A DNA stretch of 64,000 nucleotides from the NCBI RefSeq assembly GCF_054482595.1, contig NZ_CM137008.1. One strand, 5' to 3'. The notes below the pieces were generated by a model. The model saw only the letters and a program-made list of their open reading frames with translations, made no database searches and was not told the DNA's origin. The stretch's first letter is position 1, and each line of letters starts with the position of its first letter. The translations under genes and the position numbers were made by a program. This document shows, piece after piece, positions 2,612 to 63,522 of the stretch.

Positions 2612-2735
2612 GTAAAACTCCATTTTATTTAATCAAGGAACTGGTGACTCTCACCAGGGGCTATATAGGATATGCCTAATACCGTGGCGTGAGCAGTCCG
2701 GAACTGGAGTAGAACTCTTAGTAAAAAGCACTATT

Positions 2736-4736
2736 TCATCCTTGTTGCTGAAGCATAGGGAATAATTGTTCGCACAGCAAAACACCGTTATTCATTGTTT
2801 CTACCCGTGCCTCGCTTTCTGTATTACGAAATTGTCCCAACACATGTGCCAGCCGATAAAAACCCACCGCGGTGAGGTCATTCGCCAGCAACTCTGCCTG
2901 ACCAATAGCACTCTGTTCCTGATAGCGCCAGCCGTTATGGAGCAGTTGAATAAGTAATGCCTGGCAGCGCATCAGCAACTGATGAGCAGTAGACGGCACA
3001 GGCAGAACGCTGGCAGAAGGTAGCGGTGCCACAGGCGCAGTTTCTGCGTCCAGCGCCCAGGCACGAGTCTTTGTCATCATTACCTGTGGTTCCAGTGTCA
3101 ATTGCCCATCAACAAAACTGACAAAGCCAGAAACCAGACACACGGGGTCGTCTGTTTGTTGCAAAAGCGCCGCCATGCGTTCAACGGCATAAGGCGCGCT
3201 GGCTGAGGCTGGCAGTGATAACGTCAGCTGATTATCTTCACCTTCGCCGCTGATTACCTGCGCATCCAGCGTTTGGCGGCTGCTATCCCAACCTAGTGAA
3301 ATACACTCAGCGACCGGCAGAATAAATAAGTTATCGACCTGATTAAGAGGCCGTATGCAGGCGGGGGGACGCTGGCGTAAATATTCCCGCAAAGCCACAA
3401 TGCCCGGCTGGCGCAACGGCGCGCTCAACATTTGCCAGGCATCTGGCGACAGTGGAACAACACTACTCAAGCGGTTACGGGTCGCGAACAGCAGTTCGCC
3501 TTCGGCACTGCGACGCGCTGCTTGTGAAACAATTTGCCCACCTGCCAGTGCGCCAGCCTGAAAACTAAACAGCCGACGTTTTGCCGCGGGAGCGTTTTCT
3601 TGTTCGCTTCTCGGCCAACTACGCGAAAGATGCAAAATACTGCCGGTGTCGGGATCGGTAAACCAGATGCGTAAACCATAATGCTCAATATCCTGCCAGC
3701 AACGCATACCTAAAGACACCAGCCGCAGATGATCAAGCTTTGCTTCTCCGGCAATGCCAGAGCCAACGACCGTGCGCCACGGCACAGGAGGAACTTCACC
3801 AACACTGTCGCGCCGGGCCATCTCTTGTGCGCAATTTAATCGACTGTTTAATGCCGCAAGCTGACGTAAGCATTCTCCGGCATGATAGTGGCTGGCGCGG
3901 GCGTGGAAGGCATCAACGCTGGCGCGCAGTTGCCGTAGCGATTCACTCACCCAGCGCCAGTTGCAGGCCTCTGCCGCCTGCAATGCGCGGTTGAAAGCGG
4001 CCTCGTAGTGAATAAGCGGCTGGCTGATGCCGCTCAGCCATAATGCCTGGCTTAGTTGTTGAACATATTGACGACACGTTTTGCCTTCTTCGCTGGCAAA
4101 CGGATCGTCAGATGATGTGACGTGTTCGCTGCGCATCTGCCAGATTAAATGAGTAAATTCCGCTTGCTGAGTTTTTGCCTGGACAAAGGCCTGTACTGCC
4201 AGTACGACATGTTCGCAAAGTGTGCCTTCAATACAATCACAACGGGCGAAACGAATGCTGCTACGGGAATAAAAACGCACATCGCTCATCGGTAAGCGGG
4301 CAGAGGGAATTTCGCCCGGCGTACAGAACAACTCAATGGTGATGCCTTTAGCGACCAGCGCCTGTGCGCGTTTGCGGGTGGTATCGGGCAGGGTAGCCAG
4401 TTCTTCCAGCCAGATTGCCGGATCCCACTCTTCTTCTTTTTCCGTGGGCTGGACGGTGGCACAAAGTCGTTGATAACTTAACACCAGCATCACGCGATGA
4501 CGGCACATGCCGCTGGCCCCGCAGCTGCACTGAGCCTCTTTCAGTGCCTGGCTGTTCGCCAGCTGGGTACGGACACCGTCACTGAAGGTGGCGATTAAAG
4601 CGCCGTTCTCATGGCTGATCTCCGGGACGTTGCCATTTTCCAGTTCCTTAAGACTGCGCTTAACAAAACCGGCATTGCTTAACGCTGTCAGGGCCTGCGG
4701 TGTCAGTTCTAATAATTCCGGACGTAGTGAATTCAT
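2736..4736 (-). CDS. yehQ: YehQ, SWIM zinc-finger protein (666 aa)
   Basis: Two CxC...CxH motifs (CSCGASGMCRHRVMLVL and CDCIEGTLCEHVVLAV); start ATG at 4734-4736 overlaps the yehP stop (ATGA). Confidence 0.8.
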   Translation of the reverse strand: MNSLRPELLELTPQALTALSNAGFVKRSLKELENGNVPEISHENGALIATFSDGVRTQLANSQALKEAQCSCGASGMCRHRVMLVLSYQRLCATVQPTEKEEEWDPAIWLEELATLPDTTRKRAQALVAKGITIELFCTPGEIPSARLPMSDVRFYSRSSIRFARCDCIEGTLCEHVVLAVQAFVQAKTQQAEFTHLIWQMRSEHVTSSDDPFASEEGKTCRQYVQQLSQALWLSGISQPLIHYEAAFNRALQAAEACNWRWVSESLRQLRASVDAFHARASHYHAGECLRQLAALNSRLNCAQEMARRDSVGEVPPVPWRTVVGSGIAGEAKLDHLRLVSLGMRCWQDIEHYGLRIWFTDPDTGSILHLSRSWPRSEQENAPAAKRRLFSFQAGALAGGQIVSQAARRSAEGELLFATRNRLSSVVPLSPDAWQMLSAPLRQPGIVALREYLRQRPPACIRPLNQVDNLFILPVAECISLGWDSSRQTLDAQVISGEGEDNQLTLSLPASASAPYAVERMAALLQQTDDPVCLVSGFVSFVDGQLTLEPQVMMTKTRAWALDAETAPVAPLPSASVLPVPSTAHQLLMRCQALLIQLLHNGWRYQEQSAIGQAELLANDLTAVGFYRLAHVLGQFRNTESEARVETMNNGVLLCEQLFPMLQQQG

Positions 4737-5869
4737 GACTGAAGATTCTCCGCAAGCCATGATGCCAGCTCGCCCGGTGTCATGGCGGCTATTTGTGCGC
4801 CGACATTTACCAGCACCTGGGCCGTATCGTGGTCATAGCAAGGTGTTGCGGTGCTATCGAGCGCCGCCAGTCCCAGCACTTTGATGCCGCTCTGGACACA
4901 CTTTTTCACCTGATGCGTCAGTAATGATGATGAACCCCCTTCGTAAAAATCGCTCACGAGGATAATGACGCTTTTCGCTGGTTGTTCAATAAGTTGCCGA
5001 CCATATTCCACGGCACTGGCGATATTGGTTCCGCCGCCTAATTGCACTTTCATTAATAACTCTACCGGATCGGCAACGTCTGCCGTGAGATCAACCACGC
5101 TGGTGTCAAACGCCACCAGATGGGTACGAATGCCGGGTAACTGCCATAAACAGGCCGCCATCACCGCAGAGTGGATCACCGAATCGACCATCGAGCCGCT
5201 TTGATCAACCAGTAAGACCAGTTGCCATTGTTCGCTTTGGCGTTTAATGCGGCTGTTAAAGCGGGGGGATTCGATATACAACTTGCCGTGTTGCGGGTGC
5301 CAGTGTTGCAGGTTGGCGCGCAGAGTACTTTTGAAATCAAAGTTTCGCGCCAGTGGAATAAATGAGCGGCGACGGCGATCGCGGACACCAGAAAAAGCCT
5401 GACGAACTTCCTTTGCCAGTCGAGCCATAATTTCTTCAACAACCTGGCGCACTATCCGGCGGGCGGCAGCCAGTACTTCGGGATTCATCAGATGTTTGGT
5501 GTGCAAAACGGCGCGTAGCAGGCTTTCAGAAGGCTGCATACGTTCCAGCACGTCGAGATTCGTCACCACATCTTCAATGCCATAGCGCAGTACGGCATCG
5601 CTTTCCAGCCGCTCAATCACCTGTTGCGGAAACAGCGTGTGAATACTGTTGATCCACTCAGGGGGGGTGAGATTTGAGCCACCTAATCCACCGGAGCGTT
5701 CACCACGCTGGAGCCGTTCAGGATCGCGCCCATACAGCCACTCCAGCGCGTGGTCTATCTGCCGGGCGTTGTCATCCAGCCCACAAAGCGTCGTTTCTGC
5801 CGCTTCGCCAAGAATTAATCGCCAGCGTTGTAGCTCACGGGTGGTCAGAAGATCGTTCAGTTCAGACAT
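4733..5869 (-). CDS. yehP: YehP, von Willebrand factor A (vWA) domain protein (378 aa)
   Basis: MIDAS-type motif LLVDQSGSM followed by ...GGGTNIASAV... and ...ILVSDFYEGG; start ATG 5867-5869 lies inside the yehM 3' end (8-nt overlap). Confidence 0.8.
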   Translation of the reverse strand: MSELNDLLTTRELQRWRLILGEAAETTLCGLDDNARQIDHALEWLYGRDPERLQRGERSGGLGGSNLTPPEWINSIHTLFPQQVIERLESDAVLRYGIEDVVTNLDVLERMQPSESLLRAVLHTKHLMNPEVLAAARRIVRQVVEEIMARLAKEVRQAFSGVRDRRRRSFIPLARNFDFKSTLRANLQHWHPQHGKLYIESPRFNSRIKRQSEQWQLVLLVDQSGSMVDSVIHSAVMAACLWQLPGIRTHLVAFDTSVVDLTADVADPVELLMKVQLGGGTNIASAVEYGRQLIEQPAKSVIILVSDFYEGGSSSLLTHQVKKCVQSGIKVLGLAALDSTATPCYDHDTAQVLVNVGAQIAAMTPGELASWLAENLQS

Positions 5870-8141
5870 GGAAAACTCCCCAGTTTTGCAGCGATGCCAG
5901 TGCCTGCTGTTCGAGTTGTTGATGATGTGCAATGGCTTGTGGTGGACAATGCAACGGCATTTGCAGCGCCGAAACGGGAAGTTGCGCCAGTTGATAATGC
6001 TCAAGCACCTGATGCGCCAGCGTCCCGCGTTCTCGTGGTGGTAGCCAGGCCATCGCCGCGCGTAAATCGGGCAGGGCATTGATAAAATTGGCATCACTCA
6101 GTTGATTTAAATGACTGCTGAAACCGGCGATAAATGCCGGCTGACAGGCCAGTTGATGACGGGCTAATGCCAGCAAACCGTGCAGCGCTTCGCCGGATTG
6201 TGCCGGGGATAACTGCGCCAGCATCGTCAGCGCCGCTTCGGCACTGGCGTTGGGATGTTCCAGACGCATCAGTGCGCCAAGAGCCGCGCCGCGATCCAGC
6301 GCCGGGGCATGGATTGCCTGACTGCGTCGCTCCAGTAAGGCTACCGCCGCAGAAAGAGAAATGCCGGGGAGCTGCACACCGCTATGCAGATCGCGCAGGA
6401 TATGACACAACGCTTGCCAGCTATGCAGGTGAGCGTGAAACTCCTTTTCATCCGGTCTGCCGTTGGATTCACACAGCCACAGCGTGCGATCGATAGCCGC
6501 GCATAACGTCGTTTGTAATATCTGCGCGCCTTGCATACCGCTAATTTCATCCAGCCGCCATAAGGCATATAGCACTTCCAGCGCCTGGCCCATTTCGGCA
6601 AATTGATTTTCCTGGGCTATTAATAATGTGAGTTGTTCCAGTAATTGTTGACTGAAGGACGCCAGACCCGCTAACGCTGCCTGGCTAAGACATGTGGTGA
6701 TACTGCCGATTCCACCCGCGTCCAGCATATCGGCTTCTAATTTATGGCGTGCGGCTTCCTGGAGTGTGGCACCAAAGCAGGCGGCCTCAATCAATGCCGC
6801 ATGCTGGCTAAGCGGGCGGGTTAATTTCCAGCGTTCTTCACCGTTGCCTGCAAGTGTCAGTGTGCTTCCCTGCTGGCGTACAATCCCTGGGATCTCCAGT
6901 ATTGCCAGCCGATGTAACACCTGACTTTGCGCTAGTCCATTGGGGTTAAAGCGATTTAAGGTAAGCTCCGCCGGAAGAGAGATTGCGGTACGTTCCAGTT
7001 CGCAGGTGACATCTTTTGGCAGAGGCGGTTGTGGCGTAGAAGGGGCAAGTTTACCGAATCCGTCACCCGCTAATGTGTCTATCAACGTTAGCAGAATCGG
7101 ATCGGTGTCGGGATGAATAACTCCGCGATAGCTCCACGGCAACGGCGCGTTCAGGGCTTCTTTAATCAGCGAGCCTGCTATGGCATCCAGCCAGTCAGTG
7201 CGTAACGGTAGTTTATGTCCGCGCAACTGTGCCAGCGCCATCGCATGCAGATGAGCGGCAGCCATATCCGCGGTCGAAGCAGGCAAGTGGTGTTGGCGCA
7301 AACGGGTAAGAACCGTTTTTAGCAGTTGTTCTCCCGCCTGCTGTAAGCCCCACTGCCAGCACCAGCTTTGCCAGACCGGGGCAGGCATTCCTGAAAGGTA
7401 TCCTGCCAGCACATCAAGGCGCTTTTCACTGTAGGGTGTGAGATAACAACCTGTAACGGCATCTGCCAGCGAGGGCAATTCTGGCTTGTTAATGTCCTGC
7501 GGGCATTCGCGCCACATTTTTGCCAGTGCCGGAGCGTGCCAGCCACCGCAGACGACTAACACGTCGCCATTATTTTGCTGCACCGCCCATGCAATCCAGC
7601 GAGCCATAAAGGCTTCGCGCTGACGATTGAGTGCATCGCCGGGGAAATCGCCCCGCAGTTGGGCAAAATAGTGCGCCAGTGCAGAGGGTAATGCAGTTTG
7701 CTGGCTTTCATCTTCGAACAAGTGATCCCACAGGGTATCGCTGTTATCCATGCGGGTGGCACGCAGCAGCAAGGTCTGGCTTTCCTCTTGCGTATCAGGC
7801 GAATCGTCCTCTTCTTCACTCTGTGCCCAGCAAGGCAAATCGATGAAGTAAGTTTGTGCCTGAATACGACGAGCGGCTTGTAGCGCCTGCCACTCCGGCG
7901 AAAATTCAGCAAATGGCGTCCAGGCACCACGCCCGGGGGCTGCACCGTCCTGATACTGGCAATAACTGTAAATAGCTACCGGAAGCTGGTGGGCTAAAAA
8001 CAGTTCGTCTACCCGGTCATTAAAATCAGCCGGGCCTTCAATCAACACGTATCGTGGCCGCTGGCTTTCGATTAACGATTTCACCAGCCGGGCGCAGGCC
8101 GGACTATGATGCCGGATGCCGACAATTAACGGCTCGCTCAT
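5862..8141 (-). CDS. yehM: YehM, large uncharacterized protein (759 aa)
   Basis: Long ORF trimmed to MSEPLIVGIRHH (ATG at 8139-8141), 10 nt downstream of the yehL stop; no motif I can assign with confidence. Confidence 0.75.
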   Translation of the reverse strand: MSEPLIVGIRHHSPACARLVKSLIESQRPRYVLIEGPADFNDRVDELFLAHQLPVAIYSYCQYQDGAAPGRGAWTPFAEFSPEWQALQAARRIQAQTYFIDLPCWAQSEEEDDSPDTQEESQTLLLRATRMDNSDTLWDHLFEDESQQTALPSALAHYFAQLRGDFPGDALNRQREAFMARWIAWAVQQNNGDVLVVCGGWHAPALAKMWRECPQDINKPELPSLADAVTGCYLTPYSEKRLDVLAGYLSGMPAPVWQSWCWQWGLQQAGEQLLKTVLTRLRQHHLPASTADMAAAHLHAMALAQLRGHKLPLRTDWLDAIAGSLIKEALNAPLPWSYRGVIHPDTDPILLTLIDTLAGDGFGKLAPSTPQPPLPKDVTCELERTAISLPAELTLNRFNPNGLAQSQVLHRLAILEIPGIVRQQGSTLTLAGNGEERWKLTRPLSQHAALIEAACFGATLQEAARHKLEADMLDAGGIGSITTCLSQAALAGLASFSQQLLEQLTLLIAQENQFAEMGQALEVLYALWRLDEISGMQGAQILQTTLCAAIDRTLWLCESNGRPDEKEFHAHLHSWQALCHILRDLHSGVQLPGISLSAAVALLERRSQAIHAPALDRGAALGALMRLEHPNASAEAALTMLAQLSPAQSGEALHGLLALARHQLACQPAFIAGFSSHLNQLSDANFINALPDLRAAMAWLPPRERGTLAHQVLEHYQLAQLPVSALQMPLHCPPQAIAHHQQLEQQALASLQNWGVFHV

Positions 8142-8151
8142 GCATCTTTCC

Positions 8152-9240
8152 TCACGGCAGGCGGTGGCGGGCTTGATAATAAGCCTGCCAGTGAGCTTCT
8201 TTATGTGTGGCGACACGCTGTTCGAAGTAACGGCGCAGACGAGCGCGATCTTCTTCGTTATCTTTGACGATGGTTCCGGCAATGCAGTCCACCAGATCGG
8301 CTGGCTCACCTGCGCGATTCGCTAAAAACCAGGCGCGGACGCCCACGGCGTGGGCCACGTTCACGGCTTCAGCGGTGGACATAATCGCTGTTAGTGTATC
8401 CATTGACGTTTTCTTTTCGCCGTTGGCACGCAGATCGCGGAAGGTGCGGACCAGTAACTCCAGTACCGCGTCAGGCACTTTATGCGGAATACCGCTATGG
8501 GCCAGCAAACGCGCCGAAGCACTGGCGACAAGCTCCAGCTCCTGGGCGAAATCCATAATCGGAAAGACAGTTTCAAAATCGAAGCGACGCTTTAGCGCAG
8601 CACTCATTTCATTGACGCCGCGATCGCGGGTATTGGCAGTGGCAATAATATTAAAGCCTTCTCGCGCATAGAGCTGACTGGCTTCACCAGTGAGTTCCGG
8701 CACCGTCATCACCCTGTCAGAAAGCATACCTAACAGACAGTCTTGCACTTCCAGCGGTGTACGCGTTATCTCTTCAAAACGGACGATTTTGCCGTCGCGC
8801 ATTCCCTGGTAAAGCGGGGCAGGGACCAGCGCTTCCGTTGATGGACCATGATTGATAAGCAGGGCGTAGTTCCAGCCGTACTTGATTTGATCTTCGGTAG
8901 TAGATGCGCCGCCCTGGATGGTTAACCCGGCATCGCCGCTAATAGCGGTTACCAGTAATTCAGACAGGAGAGATTTTGCGGTGCCAGGTTCCCCCACCAA
9001 CATCAAACCGCGTCCGGTGGCAAGAGTGACTAACATACGTTCGACAGCGGAGGGACTAATCACCACTTTACGGCTAATATTTTGCGCGCTATCGCCAAGG
9101 ATAAAAGCACGGGCCGCAGGCAAACTTAACTGCCAACCGGGCGGGCAAGGTGCGTTATCATTTTGTTTTAATTTTGCCAGTTCATCGGCGTATAACACAG
9201 CAGCAGGCGGACGCTGCAGATGATTATTCTGCGGTGACAT
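8152..9240 (-). CDS. yehL: YehL, MoxR-family AAA+ ATPase (362 aa)
   Basis: Walker A GEPGTAKS and AAA+ core; ORF trimmed to MSPQNNHLQRPPA (ATG at 9238-9240). Confidence 0.85.
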   Translation of the reverse strand: MSPQNNHLQRPPAAVLYADELAKLKQNDNAPCPPGWQLSLPAARAFILGDSAQNISRKVVISPSAVERMLVTLATGRGLMLVGEPGTAKSLLSELLVTAISGDAGLTIQGGASTTEDQIKYGWNYALLINHGPSTEALVPAPLYQGMRDGKIVRFEEITRTPLEVQDCLLGMLSDRVMTVPELTGEASQLYAREGFNIIATANTRDRGVNEMSAALKRRFDFETVFPIMDFAQELELVASASARLLAHSGIPHKVPDAVLELLVRTFRDLRANGEKKTSMDTLTAIMSTAEAVNVAHAVGVRAWFLANRAGEPADLVDCIAGTIVKDNEEDRARLRRYFEQRVATHKEAHWQAYYQARHRLP

Positions 9241-9349: not shown

Positions 9350-9388
9350 ATAAAAAAACCTGCTGGTGAGGCAGGTTCTTTTATTTAC
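9350..9388. terminator. Bidirectional intrinsic-terminator-like hairpin, unit A; candidate 3' end of an antisense sRNA
   Basis: aaaaaaa-cctgc-tggtgag-gcagg-ttcttttattt: GC stem flanked by an A-run on one side and a T-run on the other. Confidence 0.5.
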
Positions 9389-9672
9389 TATTTTCAGGCC
9401 TAACACCACAGCCTGTGCAACATCGTGTTCCAACGAACGAATTATAACCACGGCTGGACCCCGTTGCAATTAAGATAATGAGATTTATAATCCAGACCGT
9501 TGGGACGTTGCGCCGGATCGAACCTATTTCAAGTCCTGGCTACCGGACGGGTGGTGCTTCAGGTGGTGCCCTGAGCCGGAGTGCAACATCGTGGTCCAAC
9601 ATACGTAAACCAGTATTGACAGGCAGTGTAAGGGTAAGGTGCTGGTGTTGCGCTCCTTAATAAGGAGAGCGG

Positions 9673-9762
9673 ATGGACTCGCTGACACAAAAGTTAACCG
9701 TGCTCATTGCTGTACTGGAGCTATTAGTAGCTCTGTTACGGTTGATTGATTTGTTGAAGTAA
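9673..9762 (+). CDS. zorP: Small hydrophobic 29-aa protein MDSLTQKLTVLIAVLELLVALLRLIDLLK; candidate type I toxin (ZorO/ZorP-like)
   Basis: ATG 9673 preceded by AGGAG (9662-9669) that lies in an inverted repeat (ctcctta/taaggag) able to sequester the RBS; single predicted TM helix; followed by a hairpin. Symbol recalled from the E. coli O157 zor-orz locus; which copy is O and which is P is uncertain. Confidence 0.55.
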   Translation: MDSLTQKLTVLIAVLELLVALLRLIDLLK

Positions 9763-9783
9763 CGGGCAAATTGAAACGCATCT

Positions 9784-9810
9784 AAGGGGGAAAACCGCTT
9801 CCCCCTTTAA
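9784..9810 (+). terminator. Hairpin downstream of small toxin ORF copy 1
   Basis: aaggggg / ccccctt stem with a 10-nt loop and a short T-run. Confidence 0.4.
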
Positions 9811-9959
9811 TAAAATGATTACTGTTTTTATTAATTCATCATATAACTCATTTTTATTTATAAATTCATCGATTTTATATTCAACGCACCATTTGACCGG
9901 GATGTGAATATTTATGGTGGGCTATTGGCAAAAAATATCTGGAAAGTAGATCGCAGAAA

Positions 9960-9998
9960 ATAAAAAAACCTGCTGGTGAGGCAGGTTCTTTTATTTAC
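9960..9998. terminator. Bidirectional intrinsic-terminator-like hairpin, unit B
   Basis: Same sequence as 9350-9388. Confidence 0.5.
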
Positions 9999-10280
9999 TA
10001 CAGTGACGCTAACTTGCTGATTGTGCAACATTTCGTACCAACGAATAAATTATAACCATATCCACACTCCATTGCAATTCAGTGAGTGAGATTTATAATC
10101 CTGCCCGTTGGGAGGTTGTGCCGGATCGGACCAATTTTAAGTCCTGGCTGCCGGACGGGTGGTGCCGCAGGCGGTGCCCTGATCCGGAGAGCAACGTTTC
10201 GTACCAACATACGTAAACCAGTATCGACAGGCAGTGTAAGGGTAAGGTGCTGGTGTTGCGCTCCTTAATAAGGAGAGCGG

Positions 10281-30129: not shown

Positions 30130-31164
30130 ATGAATATTCGTATAATGTTATTTATAGTAATGATGATGGTTATGCCTGTGAGTTATGCTGCATGTTATGG
30201 CGAGTTGTCAGCACAGCATAATTTGGTTGTTCAGGGGGATTTTGCGCTAACTCAAAATCAAACAGCAACTCATACATATACTTTTAATGATACTTCTTGC
30301 GTCAGTACTAATACAGTAGCGCAGATAGACCCCTCGGATATTGTGATTGGACTCTATAATGACACCATCAAACTTAAGTTGCATTTTGAATGGGAGAAAA
30401 AAGGTAGCATCACGCTTTCAAATAACCAAACTAGTTTTACGAGTGGATATAATGTCACTGTGACATCGGCAGCGAGCGATGCCATAGTGAATTTGTCTGG
30501 TGGGGGAAGTGGATCTCTCATGATTAACAGTGTCGCGACATTAAGCAGTGCTTCATCATCTACTCGTTTGGCTGCTTTTTTACAATTTGCAGGTTGTTTT
30601 CTAGGCGGCACCTCATGGGATATCTGTGTGCAAAACTATAAAAATGCATTATCAAAAAATGCAGGTGTCTATTCCTTTAATCTGGCATTGTCATATAACC
30701 CGATAACAACGACCTGCAAACCTGATGATTTATTAATTACTTTAGAGAGTATTCCAATTTTACAATTACCAACCACAGGTAACAAAGCAACAATAAATAG
30801 CAAAAAAGGGGATATTATTCTGCGCTGTAAAAATTTATTAGGTCAGCAGAATCAAACATCACGGAAAATGCAGGTGTATTTATCAAGTTCTGACTTGTTA
30901 ACCAACAGCAACACAATACTGAAAGGTGCGGAAGATAATGGCGTAGGATTTATTCTTGAAAGTAATGGTTCGCCAGTCACACTTTTAAATATCACTAACA
31001 GCAGTAAAGGATACACAAATTTAAAAGAAATTGCGGCAAAGTCAAAACTTACAGATACAACGGTTTCAATTCCGATAACAGCCAGTTACTACGTCTACGA
31101 TACAAACAAAGTTAAATCTGGCGCACTGGAGGCAACCGCACTAATCAACGTGAAATACGACTAA
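30130..31164 (+). CDS. yehA: Fimbrial subunit / putative tip adhesin YehA (344 aa)
   Basis: Signal peptide MNIRIMLFIVMMMVMPVSYA; C-terminal fimbrial subunit-like region; ORF trimmed to the ATG at 30130 after the yehB stop. Confidence 0.8.
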   Translation: MNIRIMLFIVMMMVMPVSYAACYGELSAQHNLVVQGDFALTQNQTATHTYTFNDTSCVSTNTVAQIDPSDIVIGLYNDTIKLKLHFEWEKKGSITLSNNQTSFTSGYNVTVTSAASDAIVNLSGGGSGSLMINSVATLSSASSSTRLAAFLQFAGCFLGGTSWDICVQNYKNALSKNAGVYSFNLALSYNPITTTCKPDDLLITLESIPILQLPTTGNKATINSKKGDIILRCKNLLGQQNQTSRKMQVYLSSSDLLTNSNTILKGAEDNGVGFILESNGSPVTLLNITNSSKGYTNLKEIAAKSKLTDTTVSIPITASYYVYDTNKVKSGALEATALINVKYD

Positions 31165-33104: not shown

Positions 33105-33240
33105 TCATCGCAACCAAACGACTCGGGGTGCCCTTCTTTGTGAAGGCTGAGAAATACCCGTATCACCTGATCTGGATAATGCCAGCGTAGGGAAGTCACG
33201 GACCACCAGGTCATTGCTTCTTCACGTTATGGCAGGAGCA
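33105..33240 (+). ncRNA. TPP riboswitch (THI element) in the thiM leader
   Basis: Contains ctcggggtgcccttctttgtgaaggctgagaaatacccgtatcacctgatctggataatgccagcgtagggaa, matching the recalled thiM THI-box aptamer; the platform reaches the SD ggcaggagc. Confidence 0.85.
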
Positions 33241-33244
33241 AACT

Positions 33245-34033
33245 ATGCAAGTCGACCTGCTGAGTTCCGCGCAATCTGCGCACACGTTACACCTTTTTCA
33301 CCAACATTCCCCTCTTGTGCATTGCATGACCAATGATGTGGTGCAAACCTTTACTGCCAATACCTTGCTGGCGCTCGGTGCATCGCCAGCGATGGTTATC
33401 GAAACCGAAGAGGCCAGTCAGTTTGCGGCTATCGCCAGTGCCTTGTTGATTAACGTTGGCACGCTGACGCAGCCACGCGCACAGGCGATGCGTGCCGCCG
33501 TTGAGCAAGCAAAAAGCTCTCAAACACCCTGGACGCTTGATCCAGTAGCGGTTGGTGCGCTCGATTATCGTCGCCATTTTTGTCATGAACTTTTATCTTT
33601 TAAACCGGCAGCGATACGTGGTAATGCTTCGGAAATCATGGCATTAGCTGGCGTTGCTACTGGCGGACGGGGAGTGGATACCACTGACGCGGCAGCTAAT
33701 GCGATACCCGCTGCACAAACACTGGCACGGGAAACTGGCGCAATCGTCGTGGTCACTGGCGAGATGGATTATGTTACCGATGGACATCGTAGCATTGGTA
33801 TTCACGGTGGCGATCCGTTAATGACCAAAGTGGTAGGAACTGGCTGTGCATTATCGGCGGTTGTCGCTGCCTGCTGTGCGTTACCAGGCGATACGCTGGA
33901 AAATGTCGCATCTGCCTGTCACTGGATGAAACAAGCCGGAGAGCGCGCAGTCGCCAGAAGCGAGGGGCCAGGCAGTTTTGTTCCACATTTCATTGATGCG
34001 CTCTGTCAATTGACGCAGGAGGCGCAGGCATGA
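33245..34033 (+). CDS. thiM: Hydroxyethylthiazole kinase ThiM (262 aa)
   Basis: Preceded by the TPP riboswitch; stop overlaps the thiD start. Confidence 0.9.
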
Positions 34034-34830
34034 AACGAATTAACGCTCTGACGATTGCCGGTACTGATCCGAGTGGTGGTGCGGGGATTCAGGCCGATCT
34101 TAAAACCTTCTCGGCACTTGGCGCTTATGGTTGCTCAGTTATTACTGCACTGGTGGCGCAAAATACCCGTGGCGTACAGTCGGTGTATCGCATTGAGCCT
34201 GATTTTGTCGCCGCCCAGCTCGATTCGGTGTTCAGCGATGTGCGAATCGATACCACTAAAATCGGTATGTTGGCGGAAACCGATATTGTTGAAGCGGTGG
34301 CAGAACGGTTGCAACGTTATCAGATCCAAAACGTGGTACTCGACACCGTTATGCTGGCAAAAAGCGGCGACCCGCTGCTTTCACCTTCGGCAGTTGCCAC
34401 GCTACGCAGTCGATTATTGCCACAGGTTTCATTAATAACGCCAAACTTGCCCGAAGCAGCCGCCTTGCTCGACGCGCCACACGCGCGCACCGAACAGGAA
34501 ATGCTGGAACAAGGGCGATCGCTGTTGGCGATGGGCTGTGGCGCAGTGCTAATGAAAGGTGGTCATCTGGATGATGAACAAAGCCCGGACTGGCTGTTTA
34601 CTCGTGAGGGAGAACAACGATTTACTGCACCGCGCATTATGACCAAAAACACCCACGGCACTGGTTGTACACTCTCTGCGGCGTTGGCTGCACTACGCCC
34701 GCGCCATACAAACTGGGCTGACACCGTACAGGAGGCAAAAAGCTGGCTTTCATCGGCGTTAGCCCAGGCCGACACGCTGGAAGTTGGTCACGGTATTGGT
34801 CCGGTTCACCACTTCCACGCCTGGTGGTGA
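34030..34830 (+). CDS. thiD: Hydroxymethylpyrimidine / phosphomethylpyrimidine kinase ThiD (266 aa)
   Basis: N-terminal [27 protein letters not shown] (ribokinase-like fold); translationally coupled to thiM. Confidence 0.9.
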
Positions 34831-34894
34831 GCACCGTACTATAGCTGCTTTGGTTATTGTCAGCCTTTGGCACTGACATTCAGGGATGAAACCA

Positions 34895-35713
34895 ATGCAG
34901 CTAAGAATTACCAGTCGAAAAAAACTCACCGCTCTATTATGCGCTCTTGGGCTAATTTCCATCGTTGCAATTTATCCGCGTCAGACGGTGAATTTTTTCT
35001 ATTCGACAGCAGTTCAGATTACAGACTACATCCACTTCTACGGTTATCGCCCGGTTAAATCTTTCGCTATTCGTATTCCTGCCAGTTACACCATTCACGG
35101 AATAGATGTTTCGCGCTGGCAGGAGCGGATCGTCTGGCAGCGGGTGGCAAAAATGCGCGATAACGGTATCCGCTTACAATTTGCCTTTATCAAGGCGACG
35201 GAAGGCGAAAAGCTGGTGGACCCCTATTTTTCGCGTAACTGGCAACTAAGCCGCGAAAATGGCCTGCTGCGCGGGGCGTATCATTATTTCTCCCCGTCGG
35301 TAGCAGCGCCTGTTCAGGCGCGATTATTTCTGCAAACGGTGGATTTCTCACAAGGCGATTTCCCTGCCGTGCTGGACGTAGAAGAACGGGGAAAATTATC
35401 GGCAAAAGAATTACGCAAGCGGGTAAGTCAGTGGCTAAAAATGGTCGAAAAAAGTACGGGAAAAAAGCCGATTATTTACTCAGGAGCCGTTTTTTATCAC
35501 ACCAATCTGGCGGGCTATTTCAATGAATATCCGTGGTGGGTGGCTCACTACTATCAACGTCGTCCGGACAATGACGGCATGGCCTGGCGTTTCTGGCAGC
35601 ATTCCGACCGTGGACAGGTAGATGGCATCAATGGTCCGGTGGATTTTAATGTATTTAATGGCACGGTGGAGGAGTTGCAGGCATTCGTTGATGGGATTAA
35701 AGAAACGCCTTAA
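34895..35713 (+). CDS. yegX: YegX, glycoside hydrolase family 25 (lysozyme/muramidase-like), signal-anchored (272 aa)
   Basis: N-terminal hydrophobic anchor; GH25-like catalytic region; ATG 34895 preferred over 34886 because of the better-spaced aggga RBS. Confidence 0.75.
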   Translation: MQLRITSRKKLTALLCALGLISIVAIYPRQTVNFFYSTAVQITDYIHFYGYRPVKSFAIRIPASYTIHGIDVSRWQERIVWQRVAKMRDNGIRLQFAFIKATEGEKLVDPYFSRNWQLSRENGLLRGAYHYFSPSVAAPVQARLFLQTVDFSQGDFPAVLDVEERGKLSAKELRKRVSQWLKMVEKSTGKKPIIYSGAVFYHTNLAGYFNEYPWWVAHYYQRRPDNDGMAWRFWQHSDRGQVDGINGPVDFNVFNGTVEELQAFVDGIKETP

Positions 35714-35764
35714 ATAAGAAGCAGTGATATACTCCCACCAGACTCCCTGGCAGGAAAAAGACAA

Positions 35765-36511
35765 ATGGAACAAGCGCATACCCAGCTGATTGCCCAACTG
35801 AACGAGCGTATTTTAGCGGCGGATAACACGCCGCTTTATATTAAGTTTGCCGAAACGGTAAAAAATGCCGTGCGCAGCGGGGTGCTGGAGCATGGCAATA
35901 TTTTGCCCGGTGAGCGTGATTTAAGTCAGTTAACCGGCGTTTCGCGCATTACGGTGCGCAAGGCGATGCAGGCGCTGGAAGAAGAGGGCGTGGTGACGCG
36001 TTCGCGTGGTTACGGCACGCAGATCAACAACATCTTCGAATACTCGTTGAAAGAAGCGCGAGGTTTTTCTCAGCAGGTGGTATTGCGCGGGAAAAAGCCC
36101 GATACGCTATGGGTTAACAAGCGTGTCGTGAAATGTCCCGAAGAAGTCGCGCAGCAGCTGGCGGTCGAAGCGGGAAGTGATGTCTTTTTGCTTAAGCGTA
36201 TTCGCTATGTCGATGAAGAAGCGGTATCGATTGAGGAATCGTGGGTTCCGGCGCATTTAATTCATGATGTTGATGCCATCGGAATTTCTCTTTATGACTA
36301 TTTCCGCAGCCAGCACATTTACCCACAACGTACACGTTCCCGCGTTAGCGCCCGGATGCCAGATGCCGAGTTTCAGTCACATATTCAGTTAGATAGCAAA
36401 ATACCGGTGCTGGTGATCAAGCAAGTGGCGCTTGACCAACAGCAACGGCCTATTGAGTACAGCATTAGCCACTGTCGCAGCGATCTATACGTTTTTGTGT
36501 GCGAGGAGTAG
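35765..36511 (+). CDS. yegW: GntR-family transcriptional regulator YegW (248 aa)
   Basis: N-terminal winged-HTH typical of GntR/HutC regulators plus a UTRA-like C-terminus. Confidence 0.85.
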   Translation: MEQAHTQLIAQLNERILAADNTPLYIKFAETVKNAVRSGVLEHGNILPGERDLSQLTGVSRITVRKAMQALEEEGVVTRSRGYGTQINNIFEYSLKEARGFSQQVVLRGKKPDTLWVNKRVVKCPEEVAQQLAVEAGSDVFLLKRIRYVDEEAVSIEESWVPAHLIHDVDAIGISLYDYFRSQHIYPQRTRSRVSARMPDAEFQSHIQLDSKIPVLVIKQVALDQQQRPIEYSISHCRSDLYVFVCEE

Positions 36512-49450: not shown

Positions 49451-49537
49451 AAAAAATAAGCCCGTGTAAGGGAGATTACACAGGCTAAGGAGGTGGTTCC
49501 TGGTACAGCTAGCATTTTATGGGTTATGTTTTTCAGC
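49451..49537 (-). ncRNA. cyaR: CyaR (RyeE) small regulatory RNA
   Basis: Minus strand reads GCTGAAAAACATAACCCATAAAATGCTAGCTGTACCAGGAACCACCTCCTTAGCCTGTGTAATCTCCCTTACACGGGCTTATTTTTT, matching recalled CyaR including its terminator. Confidence 0.85.
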
Positions 49538-49621
49538 GAAACGGATGATAACCTTAATAAATGCAGCTGTATGTGATCGGTTTCTAAGAATTTTCCATCC
49601 GGGAAAAATAATCGAAATTAA

Positions 49622-62854: not shown

Positions 62855-63000
62855 CGGGACGCTGAAACGGGAAAGCCCCTCCCGAGGAAGGGGCCATAAA
62901 TAAGGAAAGGGTCATGATGAAGTGGATCATCATCGTGGTGCTCTTAGTCATAAGCTTCCCGGCTTACTAAGACTACCAGGGCGGGGGAAACCCCGCTCTA
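62855..63000 (-). ncRNA. Candidate Sib antisense antitoxin sRNA, copy 1 (boundaries approximate)
   Basis: Inferred from the ibs/sib architecture, in which the antisense sRNA fully overlaps the ibs ORF; hairpin elements at both ends of the unit. Confidence 0.4.
62914..62970 (+). CDS. Ibs-family hydrophobic toxin peptide (18 aa, MMKWIIIVVLLVISFPAY)
   Basis: ATGATG start, wholly hydrophobic peptide ending in AY, RBS aggaaaggg; location between mdtA and yegL matches the recalled K-12 ibsA/ibsB-sibA/sibB locus. Confidence 0.65.
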   Translation: MMKWIIIVVLLVISFPAY

Positions 63001-63179
63001 CCCTCACTCCTGAAAGTATGCCTTCACGATAAGATTGTCAATCCGCAGGCTTTGCAGTCTGCGATCCTGCCAGCAAATATTCTTTGCGAGTCGTTACGCA
63101 ATAATCACAGAGGAAACTATTTTGTTCACGCGTTAGCGATAGACTGTATTCAGGGCGAAAGGAGGTAAGCCGACGATTT

Positions 63180-63330
63180 CAGCGGGATGCTGAAACGGGA
63201 AAGCCCCTCCCGGAGAAGAGGGCTTTTAATAAGGAAAGGGTTATGATGAAGCACGTCATCATACTGGTGATACTCTTAGTGATTAGCTTCCAGGCTTACT
63301 AAGAACACCAGGGGGAGGGGGAAACCTCTC
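63180..63330 (-). ncRNA. Candidate Sib antisense antitoxin sRNA, copy 2 (boundaries approximate)
   Basis: As copy 1; minus-strand hairpin gccctcttctccgggaggggc followed by a T-rich run just beyond the ibs start. Confidence 0.4.
63243..63302 (+). CDS. ibsA: Ibs-family hydrophobic toxin peptide (19 aa, MMKHVIILVILLVISFQAY)
   Basis: Near-identical to recalled IbsA (MMKHVIILVILLVISFPAY); A versus B assignment uncertain. Confidence 0.65.
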   Translation: MMKHVIILVILLVISFQAY

Positions 63331-63522
63331 CCTAACCCTCACTCCTGAAATTATGTCACTCCGCCCTTAGTGTCAATCGACGGCTCTCCGTTCTTGCGAG
63401 GCGAATAGCAAAATTTTCTGCGCCGCCGGGCCTAATTCTGAAAGTTTCTTCGTTTGCTCTTATTTCATTATTGCAGTCGGTATGATACCGGACCTCGATA
63501 ATTCTCTAAGAAAGGATTTCTT

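Follow-up and report, generated by a model that had tools for sequence, protein, structure and literature searches.

The gene yegX, at positions 34895..35713 (+) of a 64,000-nucleotide stretch of a RefSeq assembly (GCF_054482595.1, contig NZ_CM137008.1; the whole stretch is called the window below), encodes a protein of 272 residues for which RefSeq gives the product 'glycoside hydrolase family 25 protein'. Here we report that YegX is a bona fide member of glycoside hydrolase family 25 (GH25) by all sequence and structure criteria, with muramidase activity predicted on the same grounds. The match of the yegX locus to this family is far beyond chance. The explanation that accounts best for the observations, to which we assign a probability of roughly 70%, is that yegX encodes a membrane-anchored periplasmic GH25 muramidase of a cellular family and owes most of its transcription to read-through from the thiM promoter. 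Four other explanations, namely an endolysin of the signal-anchor-release (SAR) type, a decaying passenger gene, a thiamine-linked role outside peptidoglycan and an exported weapon, are all less likely.

The original prediction, made without database searches, described a GH25 muramidase-like protein and was to be given up if no GH25 hit appeared in a hidden Markov model search. Pfam PF01183 (Glyco_hydro_25) matched YegX with an E-value of 5.6e-53 and 180.4 bits against a gathering score of 27, over profile positions 1-180 of 180. The envelope of this match delimits the GH25 catalytic domain, residues 70-245 of 272 (35102..35629, +). The NCBIfam scan of YegX matched no family and gave no equivalog. 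A sequence search of the PDB returned GH25 enzymes only, with 2wag as the best match (2.4e-31), followed by 4kru/4krt and 1jfx. The AlphaFold (AF2) model of YegX, built on 54 homologues, has a mean predicted local distance difference test value (pLDDT) of 88.9 and a predicted template modelling score (pTM) of 0.80. Foldseek against the PDB at E <= 0.001 gave 17 matches. Of these, 1sfs is an uncharacterised protein and all others belong to GH25. TM-scores are 0.79-0.85 for 1jfx and 2wag, the top two, with a root mean square deviation of 2.3-2.8 A and 32-33% identity.

The active site of YegX was read from two alignments, A1 with 16 sequences and A2 with 54 sequences of 42-96% identity. Asp71 in the motif GIDVS (codon 35105..35107, +) is the first catalytic-site Asp and aligns with GVDVA of 2wag. 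Asp161-Val-Glu163 (codons 35375..35383, +) form the GH25 D-x-E motif, aligned with DVE of 2wag and DIE of Psm from phage phiSM101 (4kru), and Asp250 in the motif DFNVF (codon 35642..35644, +) is a conserved active-site Asp as located in the alignments and by reading the codon. All four residues, D71, D161, E163 and D250, show no variation in A1, and in A2 their conservation is 90% or higher. The catalytic roles of the N-terminal Asp and of the D-x-E motif in GH25 are known from cellosyl, Cpl-1 and the Bacillus anthracis enzyme. The roles of the GH25 residues were reportedly worked out by Rau in 2001 and Martinez-Fleites in 2009, and PMC4241558 cites the latter. Cellosyl of Streptomyces coelicolor (1JFX) and the B. 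anthracis GH25 enzyme (2WAG) share with YegX the fold, the catalytic Asp and D-x-E, and they too are chromosomal, non-phage proteins. They are soluble or secreted enzymes of Gram-positive bacteria, whereas YegX has a basic tail, a transmembrane (TM) anchor and a 35-residue module, and is predicted to lie in the periplasm of a Gram-negative cell.

yegX is nearly universal in Escherichia coli: of 5426 complete genomes, 5424 have it, and in these it carries a GH25 annotation. Its ratio of nonsynonymous to synonymous divergence (dN/dS) is 0.05-0.10 in comparisons with Escherichia spp., E. albertii, an E. fergusonii-like locus and Salmonella enterica, a range that covers divergences at which dS is saturated; the thiM values are similar (0.10-0.12). 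Out to Salmonella, the dS of yegX rises in step with that of thiM and thiD. The gene is functional rather than decaying. We regard the GH25 family and fold, the intact active site and purifying selection as virtually certain.

The N-terminus of YegX consists of a basic tail, MQLRITSRKK, and a signal-anchor TM helix, residues L11-Y27 (LTALLCALGLISIVAIY; 34925..34975, +), in agreement with the signal anchor proposed earlier. This is the sole hydrophobic segment of the protein, with a Kyte-Doolittle peak of 1.89 at residues 10-28, and AF2 models a helix at residues 8-26. Three Lys or Arg residues stand before the best 19-residue window (four before the TM helix proper) and one after it. There is no lipobox, because the -1 residue ahead of Cys16 (ALLC) is Leu. 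In each of the 16 aligned homologues a tail rich in K/R (2-16 Lys plus Arg) precedes one hydrophobic segment; the long basic tails of homologues, with up to 16 such residues, argue against a cleavable signal peptide. Between helix and barrel lies a family-specific juxtamembrane linker, residues 28-62 (34976..35080, +), defined by both alignments and the AF2 secondary structure. It comprises a helix (28-48) and a beta-hairpin (51-62), and in A1 and A2 Y51 and F57 are nearly invariant and P62 is invariant. K/R-rich tail, TM helix, linker of about 35 residues and GH25 barrel follow each other in this order in all homologues examined.

The single N-terminal hydrophobic helix, the positive-inside charge bias and the lack of a lipobox are those of a type II anchor. 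Hydropathy, charge bias and family conservation together make it very likely that YegX is a type II (N-in, C-out) inner-membrane protein with a periplasmic GH25 domain; the predicted placement of the catalytic domain follows from the positive-inside rule. In the mechanism that we propose, YegX would sit in the inner membrane with its N-terminus in and its C-terminus out, and the conserved tether of about 35 residues would hold the GH25 (beta/alpha)-barrel in the periplasm. There it would act as a true muramidase (lysozyme), hydrolysing the beta-1,4 bond between N-acetylmuramic acid (MurNAc) and N-acetylglucosamine (GlcNAc) in strands or fragments of peptidoglycan near the membrane, with Asp71, Asp161-x-Glu163 and Asp250 as catalytic residues. 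Judged by family membership, hydrolysis of MurNAc-beta-1,4-GlcNAc near the membrane that leaves reducing MurNAc ends is the probable reaction.

The same anchor bears on the idea that YegX is an antibacterial weapon, an exported lysozyme that kills competitors. GH25 lysozymes have repeatedly been transferred between lineages and are used as antibacterials (PMC4241558), but the anchor of YegX looks uncleaved and an enzyme tethered to the inner membrane cannot reach other cells. Moreover, no secretion-system, immunity or toxin-delivery gene is adjacent to yegX. We consider the probability of such a role close to negligible.

A membrane tether in front of a muralytic domain is also the layout of SAR endolysins, and GH25 domains are common among endolysins in general. 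yegX might accordingly be a domesticated phage endolysin, as the original prediction suggested, that is, the surviving lysin of a decayed prophage, perhaps of the SAR type and able to leave the membrane and lyse the cell. In SAR endolysins such as P1 Lyz and phage 21 R, an N-terminal membrane segment holds the muralytic domain in the periplasm without holin export. These enzymes belong to a T4-lysozyme-like catalytic family, are encoded in phage lysis cassettes and have a Gly/Ala-rich helix that is able to exit the bilayer. YegX shares the layout of the tether and differs in its GH25 family, its chromosomal context and, in composition, its Leu/Ile-rich helix. The Gly+Ala+Ser+Thr fraction of its TM segment is 0.32 versus approximately 0.53-0.63 in the SAR domains of P1 Lyz and phage 21 R; mean hydropathy is similar. 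GH25 endolysins (Cpl-1 type; Psm of Clostridium phage phiSM101, 4KRT/4KRU; TP-84) share the catalytic domain with YegX (E 1e-27 to 1e-28 and roughly 31-37% identity), adjoin a holin (directly upstream in TP-84) and carry C-terminal wall-binding modules without a TM anchor. yegX, in contrast, has neither a holin neighbour nor C-terminal wall-binding modules, and it has the TM anchor.

Searches among phages point in the same direction. PHROG endolysin families do match YegX (phrog_291 with E 9e-45, including part of the linker; phrog_6219 with 3e-36), but within a phage collection of 50,697 records all of the 157 that match lie below 60% identity. The best bona fide phage match is the endolysin of Geobacillus phage TP-84, which stands beside its own holin and reaches 37% identity over the catalytic domain only. 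Two 'phage' records with full- or near-full-length matches were rejected as phages. They are chromosomal, because dinP, creBCD and transporters surround the anchored GH25 gene of 'Acinetobacter phage MD-2021a', and the unverified faecal 'Bacteriophage sp.' contig carries prmA. These two mislabelled records, each with a gene for a membrane-anchored GH25 protein, are L088 (CAKLQH020000037.1) and L087 (MT838172.1). A separate family, phrog_23704 ('unknown function', 134 positions), corresponds to the C-terminal half of YegX, residues 153-272 (window 35348-35710; E 4.7e-83); its probable source is yegX fragments in mis-delimited prophage predictions.

The annotation within +/-9 kb of yegX is free of phage genes, holins and spanins included, in line with the earlier remark that none lie nearby. 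Since neither a phage or holin neighbourhood nor phage-encoded closest relatives were found, yegX lies outside phage lysis cassettes. The comparison of GC content with the flanks, proposed together with the endolysin origin, gave no foreign signal: GC (0.485) and GC at third codon positions (GC3, 0.505) are inside the range of the flanking genes, and a recent transfer of yegX was discarded on the same test. Purifying selection, the co-divergence of dS with thiMD and hundreds of chromosomal orthologues with the same architecture further oppose the endolysin explanation, which is not supported and which we rate as quite improbable. We favour an anchored cellular enzyme. yegX would come from an old cellular family of membrane-anchored Gram-negative GH25 enzymes and not from a phage lysis cassette.

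Relatives were sought in 5.8 billion proteins and by a scan of one genome per species. Among the matches listed, chromosomal full-length relatives occur in Escherichia, some Salmonella, a Neisseriales-like lineage, Sphingobacteriales/Chitinophagales and Acinetobacter. The yegX of some Salmonella enterica (locus L003, identified by exact ThiD and YegW matches) is 67% identical. An uncultured Neisseriales/Chromobacteriaceae-like lineage, whose DnaB is 79% identical to that of Crenobacter, has 54-58% identity, and the main group among the matches listed, Sphingobacteriales and Chitinophagales, 42-55%. The architecture of YegX is common to hundreds of chromosomal genes of Bacteroidota and some Proteobacteria. 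A simple horizontal transfer of yegX from Bacteroidota was suggested by the genome scan, but this candidate was softened by a neighbour-joining tree, in which the enteric and Neisseriales-like clade is sister to the Sphingobacteriales clade and not nested within it.

In 28-29 of 77 Bacteroidota loci, many of them in Sphingobacteriales, the GH25 gene is flanked by a dipeptidase (NF006053, 545 bits, above cutoff) and an enolase-superfamily enzyme, whose best match is L-Ala-D/L-Glu epimerase, below the cutoff of that model. These dipeptidase and epimerase-like neighbours, of the kind that serves catabolism of peptidoglycan stem peptides, are a hint that the anchored GH25 family handles cell-wall material. 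A cross-phylum link with an M20 peptidase was rejected, as the M20 neighbour of the betaproteobacterial homologue is unrelated to that in Bacteroidota (E 0.28).

With respect to its expression, yegX stands at the end of the thiamine salvage genes. thiM (hydroxyethylthiazole kinase; 33245..34033, +) and thiD (kinase of hydroxymethylpyrimidine (HMP) and HMP phosphate (HMP-P); 34030..34830, +), both given by their open reading frames (ORFs) and the RefSeq annotation, lie directly upstream on the same strand; the earlier placement of yegX beside thiMD agrees with the RefSeq start and name. Ahead of thiM, Rfam RF00059 identifies a thiamine pyrophosphate (TPP) riboswitch aptamer at 33114..33210 (+) with 71.2 bits against a gathering score of 54.3, and RefSeq has a riboswitch in the same place. 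TPP reduces the entire thiMD mRNA via Rho-dependent termination early in thiM, and the operon is described as thiMD only (PMC5499598).

The stop codon of thiD is 64 nucleotides ahead of the yegX start. The spacer of 64 nucleotides (34831..34894, +) holds a hairpin, TGTCAG-N9-CTGACA, without a T-run, and the motif AGGGA; its fold z-score of -0.93 is not unusual. A scan with consensus promoters and terminators found nothing in the thiD-yegX and yegX-yegW spacers, and overall counts were not above those of shuffles. A site of the RpoD holoenzyme (constitutive promoter), without recognisable -35 and -10 elements, has been reported between thiD and yegX (PMC3946193). A block GTAnTATnGC in the spacer is conserved from E. 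coli to Salmonella, and by its sequence the conserved TACTAT/TAATAT/TATTAT block is a candidate promoter of yegX. Two further observations concern hairpins. In a heat-adapted laboratory E. coli lineage a point mutation falls on 34859, at -36 from yegX and +29 from thiD (PMC12812777), a position in the stem of the spacer hairpin. The yegX coding region itself contains, at 35306-35321, a terminator-like element that consists of a perfect hairpin (GCGCCTG-TT-CAGGCGC) with a T-rich stretch behind it; the count of terminator-like sites in the region is no higher than expected from shuffles.

Expression data come from an RNA sequencing (RNA-seq) study of three enterohaemorrhagic E. coli (EHEC) strains grown in lamb's-lettuce medium versus M9-glucose, in which yegX is among the 20 most repressed shared genes (PMC6729007). 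The log2 fold changes in strains 1, 2 and 3 are -3.75, -6.42 and -3.80 for yegX and -3.74, -5.56 and -4.09 for thiD, and thiC, thiE, thiF, thiG and thiH stand in the same table of 20 (PMC6729007). The supplementary differential-expression lists contain thiM and yegX, but not yegW (PMC6729007). The gap of 64 nucleotides, the common strand, the lack of a terminator and the co-repression with thiD and thiCEFGH imply that yegX probably rides on the riboswitch-controlled thiMD transcript. We infer a single thiM-thiD-yegX transcript, with the riboswitch at 33114..33210 as the probable upstream control point for all three genes. From this published data set and the gene anatomy, it is likely that expression of yegX is gated by the thiM riboswitch. 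The original prediction had called yegX an orphan that stands alone. This is right as far as a lysis cassette is concerned; it is not quite right for a gene that lies 64 nucleotides behind thiD without a terminator and whose mRNA falls with thiD, thiM and thiCEFGH (PMC6729007), and the label 'orphan' is misleading.

As to the mechanism in E. coli, yegX would have no more than a weak promoter of its own, most of its transcripts starting at the thiM promoter and reading through. Levels of yegX mRNA would be high in thiamine-poor medium and would be shut off with thiM and thiD when TPP binds the riboswitch and Rho terminates transcription.

The adjacency of thiD and yegX is kept in E. albertii, two divergent Escherichia lineages and an E. 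fergusonii-like genome. The Salmonella locus L003 lacks rcnA/rcnR and has an intact riboswitch-thiM-thiD block downstream of yegX. Ahead of yegX in this locus, at 5654-5944, we found relics of the riboswitch with the 5' end of thiM and of the 3' end of thiD with the spacer, as compared with window 33137-33285 and 34799-34854; the body of thiMD is deleted. These relics show riboswitch-thiM-thiD-yegX to be the ancestral order. The layout looks like a tandem duplication, or the gain of a second riboswitch-thiMD-yegX block, followed by reciprocal loss. A second TPP riboswitch ahead of Salmonella yegX was considered and dismissed, since the sole Rfam match, even with the threshold relaxed to E <= 1, is the intact copy ahead of thiM, and the upstream copy is decayed. 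By inheritance, yegX would have stood next to thiMD since before the split of Escherichia and Salmonella.

The position in the operon would also be explained if YegX had a role outside peptidoglycan, its GH25 fold acting on another periplasmic glycoside tied to the salvage of thiamine precursors. Tight co-regulation with thiD and thiM and the adjacency to thiMD in Escherichia, the E. fergusonii-like genome and Salmonella would fit, but the active-site residues are canonical, no thiM or thiD lies near non-enteric homologues, and the Bacteroidota neighbours point to catabolism of peptidoglycan peptides. To our knowledge every characterised GH25 enzyme is a muramidase, which likewise counts against this explanation; we judge it very improbable. 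A different matter is whether E. coli and its relatives deliberately raise a periplasmic muramidase via the thiM riboswitch when TPP is scarce, YegX being the true lysozyme-type hydrolase that the peptidoglycan-hydrolase inventory of E. coli lacks. Such a functional coupling is rather doubtful. If it were true, the response to thiamine starvation would include hydrolysis or turnover of the cell wall, or the release and uptake of precursors or of material derived from the wall.

Several observations weigh against the view that YegX is an anchored muramidase expressed from the thiM promoter. Among 60 evenly sampled complete E. coli genomes about four have a frameshifted yegX, and truncated forms occur in Shigella, which indicates that the function is dispensable. 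Examples of frameshifted genes are those of E. coli EC27 and BL12 (L089, L090); three alleles share a length of +4 bp, which suggests one lineage. The Keio deletion of yegX is viable and has given weak hits only, in screens with boric acid and epetraborole, both boron compounds. Such losses, together with the weak promoter signals and the lack of an NCBIfam equivalog, would be expected if yegX were a silent or catalytically irrelevant passenger behind thiD that is heading to pseudogenisation. A dN/dS of 0.05-0.10 over saturated dS, catalytic residues invariant in A1, and the retention of the gene in 5424 of 5426 complete E. coli genomes as well as in E. albertii, the E. fergusonii-like genome and Salmonella argue otherwise, and decay is an unlikely explanation. 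For the anchored muramidase, yegX would be non-essential and sporadically lost.

Further points of this kind concern regulation and the literature. The co-regulation of yegX with thi genes has a single RNA-seq study behind it, covering three strains and one contrast. In another study yegX was up 2.3-fold with no thi gene listed, which together with the RpoD-holoenzyme site suggests that a weak own promoter probably exists. Near the homologues in Bacteroidota, Neisseriales-like and Acinetobacter loci there is no thiM or thiD, so that the linkage is enteric only and the thiamine coupling may just reflect the insertion site. The synteny with dipeptidase and epimerase is limited to the 28-29 or so of the 77 Bacteroidota loci and is absent in the Mucilaginibacter loci examined (L015, L019, L021). 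The searchable literature yielded no enzymatic, localisation or phenotype reports on YegX or the anchored subfamily, and its peptidoglycan papers do not mention yegX. A 2025 inventory of glycan-cleaving enzymes in E. coli comprises eight lytic transglycosylases, RlpA and DigH, and yegX is not listed (PMC12288456).

The predicted function of YegX is best seen against the enzymes of that inventory. E. coli is the reference organism for peptidoglycan biology, and the current view assigns the cutting of its glycan strands to lytic transglycosylases and DigH (PMC12288456). MltG, DigH and other lytic transglycosylases are periplasmic, cut the MurNAc-GlcNAc backbone, and are non-essential and redundant (PMC12288456). 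Lytic transglycosylases have other folds, are non-hydrolytic and yield 1,6-anhydroMurNAc, whereas a GH25 enzyme would hydrolyse the bond and leave reducing MurNAc. If active, YegX would give the E. coli inventory a muramidase that works by hydrolysis. Its physiological role could be the turnover of nascent or uncross-linked strands, or of fragments, and an autolysin role, in the sense of a self-directed housekeeping muramidase, is plausible. MltG is likewise held at the inner membrane through one N-terminal helix. The resemblance of YegX to SAR endolysins and MltG goes no further than the design, in which a glycan-cleaving domain is anchored in the inner membrane.

The finding that yegX is a GH25 gene is already known, as RefSeq holds the gene and its family assignment for thousands of genomes. 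In the searchable literature we found screens, tables and false positives for yegX (b2102) and no functional study, and no study of the anchored Gram-negative GH25 subfamily, which is widespread in Bacteroidota. Seemingly unreported is that yegX is apparently part of a TPP-riboswitch-controlled unit; with this control, the 'thiMD' operon of the textbooks would gain a third gene, unrelated to the other two. In kind yegX is ordinary, and beyond the points on hydrolase inventory, operon and subfamily it is a routine annotation.

Concerning the start codon, the longest ORF for yegX in the window's ORF list is 34886-35713 (+), with 275 residues. RefSeq uses the second in-frame ATG at 34895, the first being at 34886, and in the alignment both are kept as far as Salmonella. 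The Shine-Dalgarno-like AGGGA read from the sequence lies about 9 nucleotides before 34895 and touches the first ATG, which favours 34895 as the start. The allele in the window is rare: 27 genomes have it at 99% identity or more, and K-12 is 97.8% identical.

Downstream of yegX lies yegW (35765..36511, +; ORF and RefSeq), a GntR/HutC-type regulator. A candidate for an independent yegW promoter is the extended -10-like TGaTATACT at 35725..35733 (+), 12 nucleotides past the yegX stop and 32 before yegW, and would fit the fact that yegW does not follow the repression of thiMD-yegX (PMC6729007). The linkage of yegW and yegX is not conserved. yegW follows thiD in Salmonella L003, and other genes follow yegX in the E. 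fergusonii-like L002, where two large DUF6493/DUF7824/DUF7825 proteins and a SWIM-domain protein (2631-8574) replace yegW and yegVUT. The annotated genes within +/-9 kb of yegX are yehABCD, rcnB, rcnA, rcnR, the TPP riboswitch, thiM, thiD, yegW, yegVUT, fbaB and gat. yehA (30130-31164, in the segment 30000-31250), fimbrial adhesin-like, is the clearest compositional outlier in its part of the window, with GC 0.377 and GC3 0.333 versus 0.46-0.57 for its neighbours. Elsewhere in the window, Rfam gave gathering-level matches at 62899-63376 (-), 49454-49539 (-) and 9352-10035 (-), comprising two SIB RNA antitoxins, the small RNA CyaR/RyeE and two OrzO-P antitoxin RNAs.

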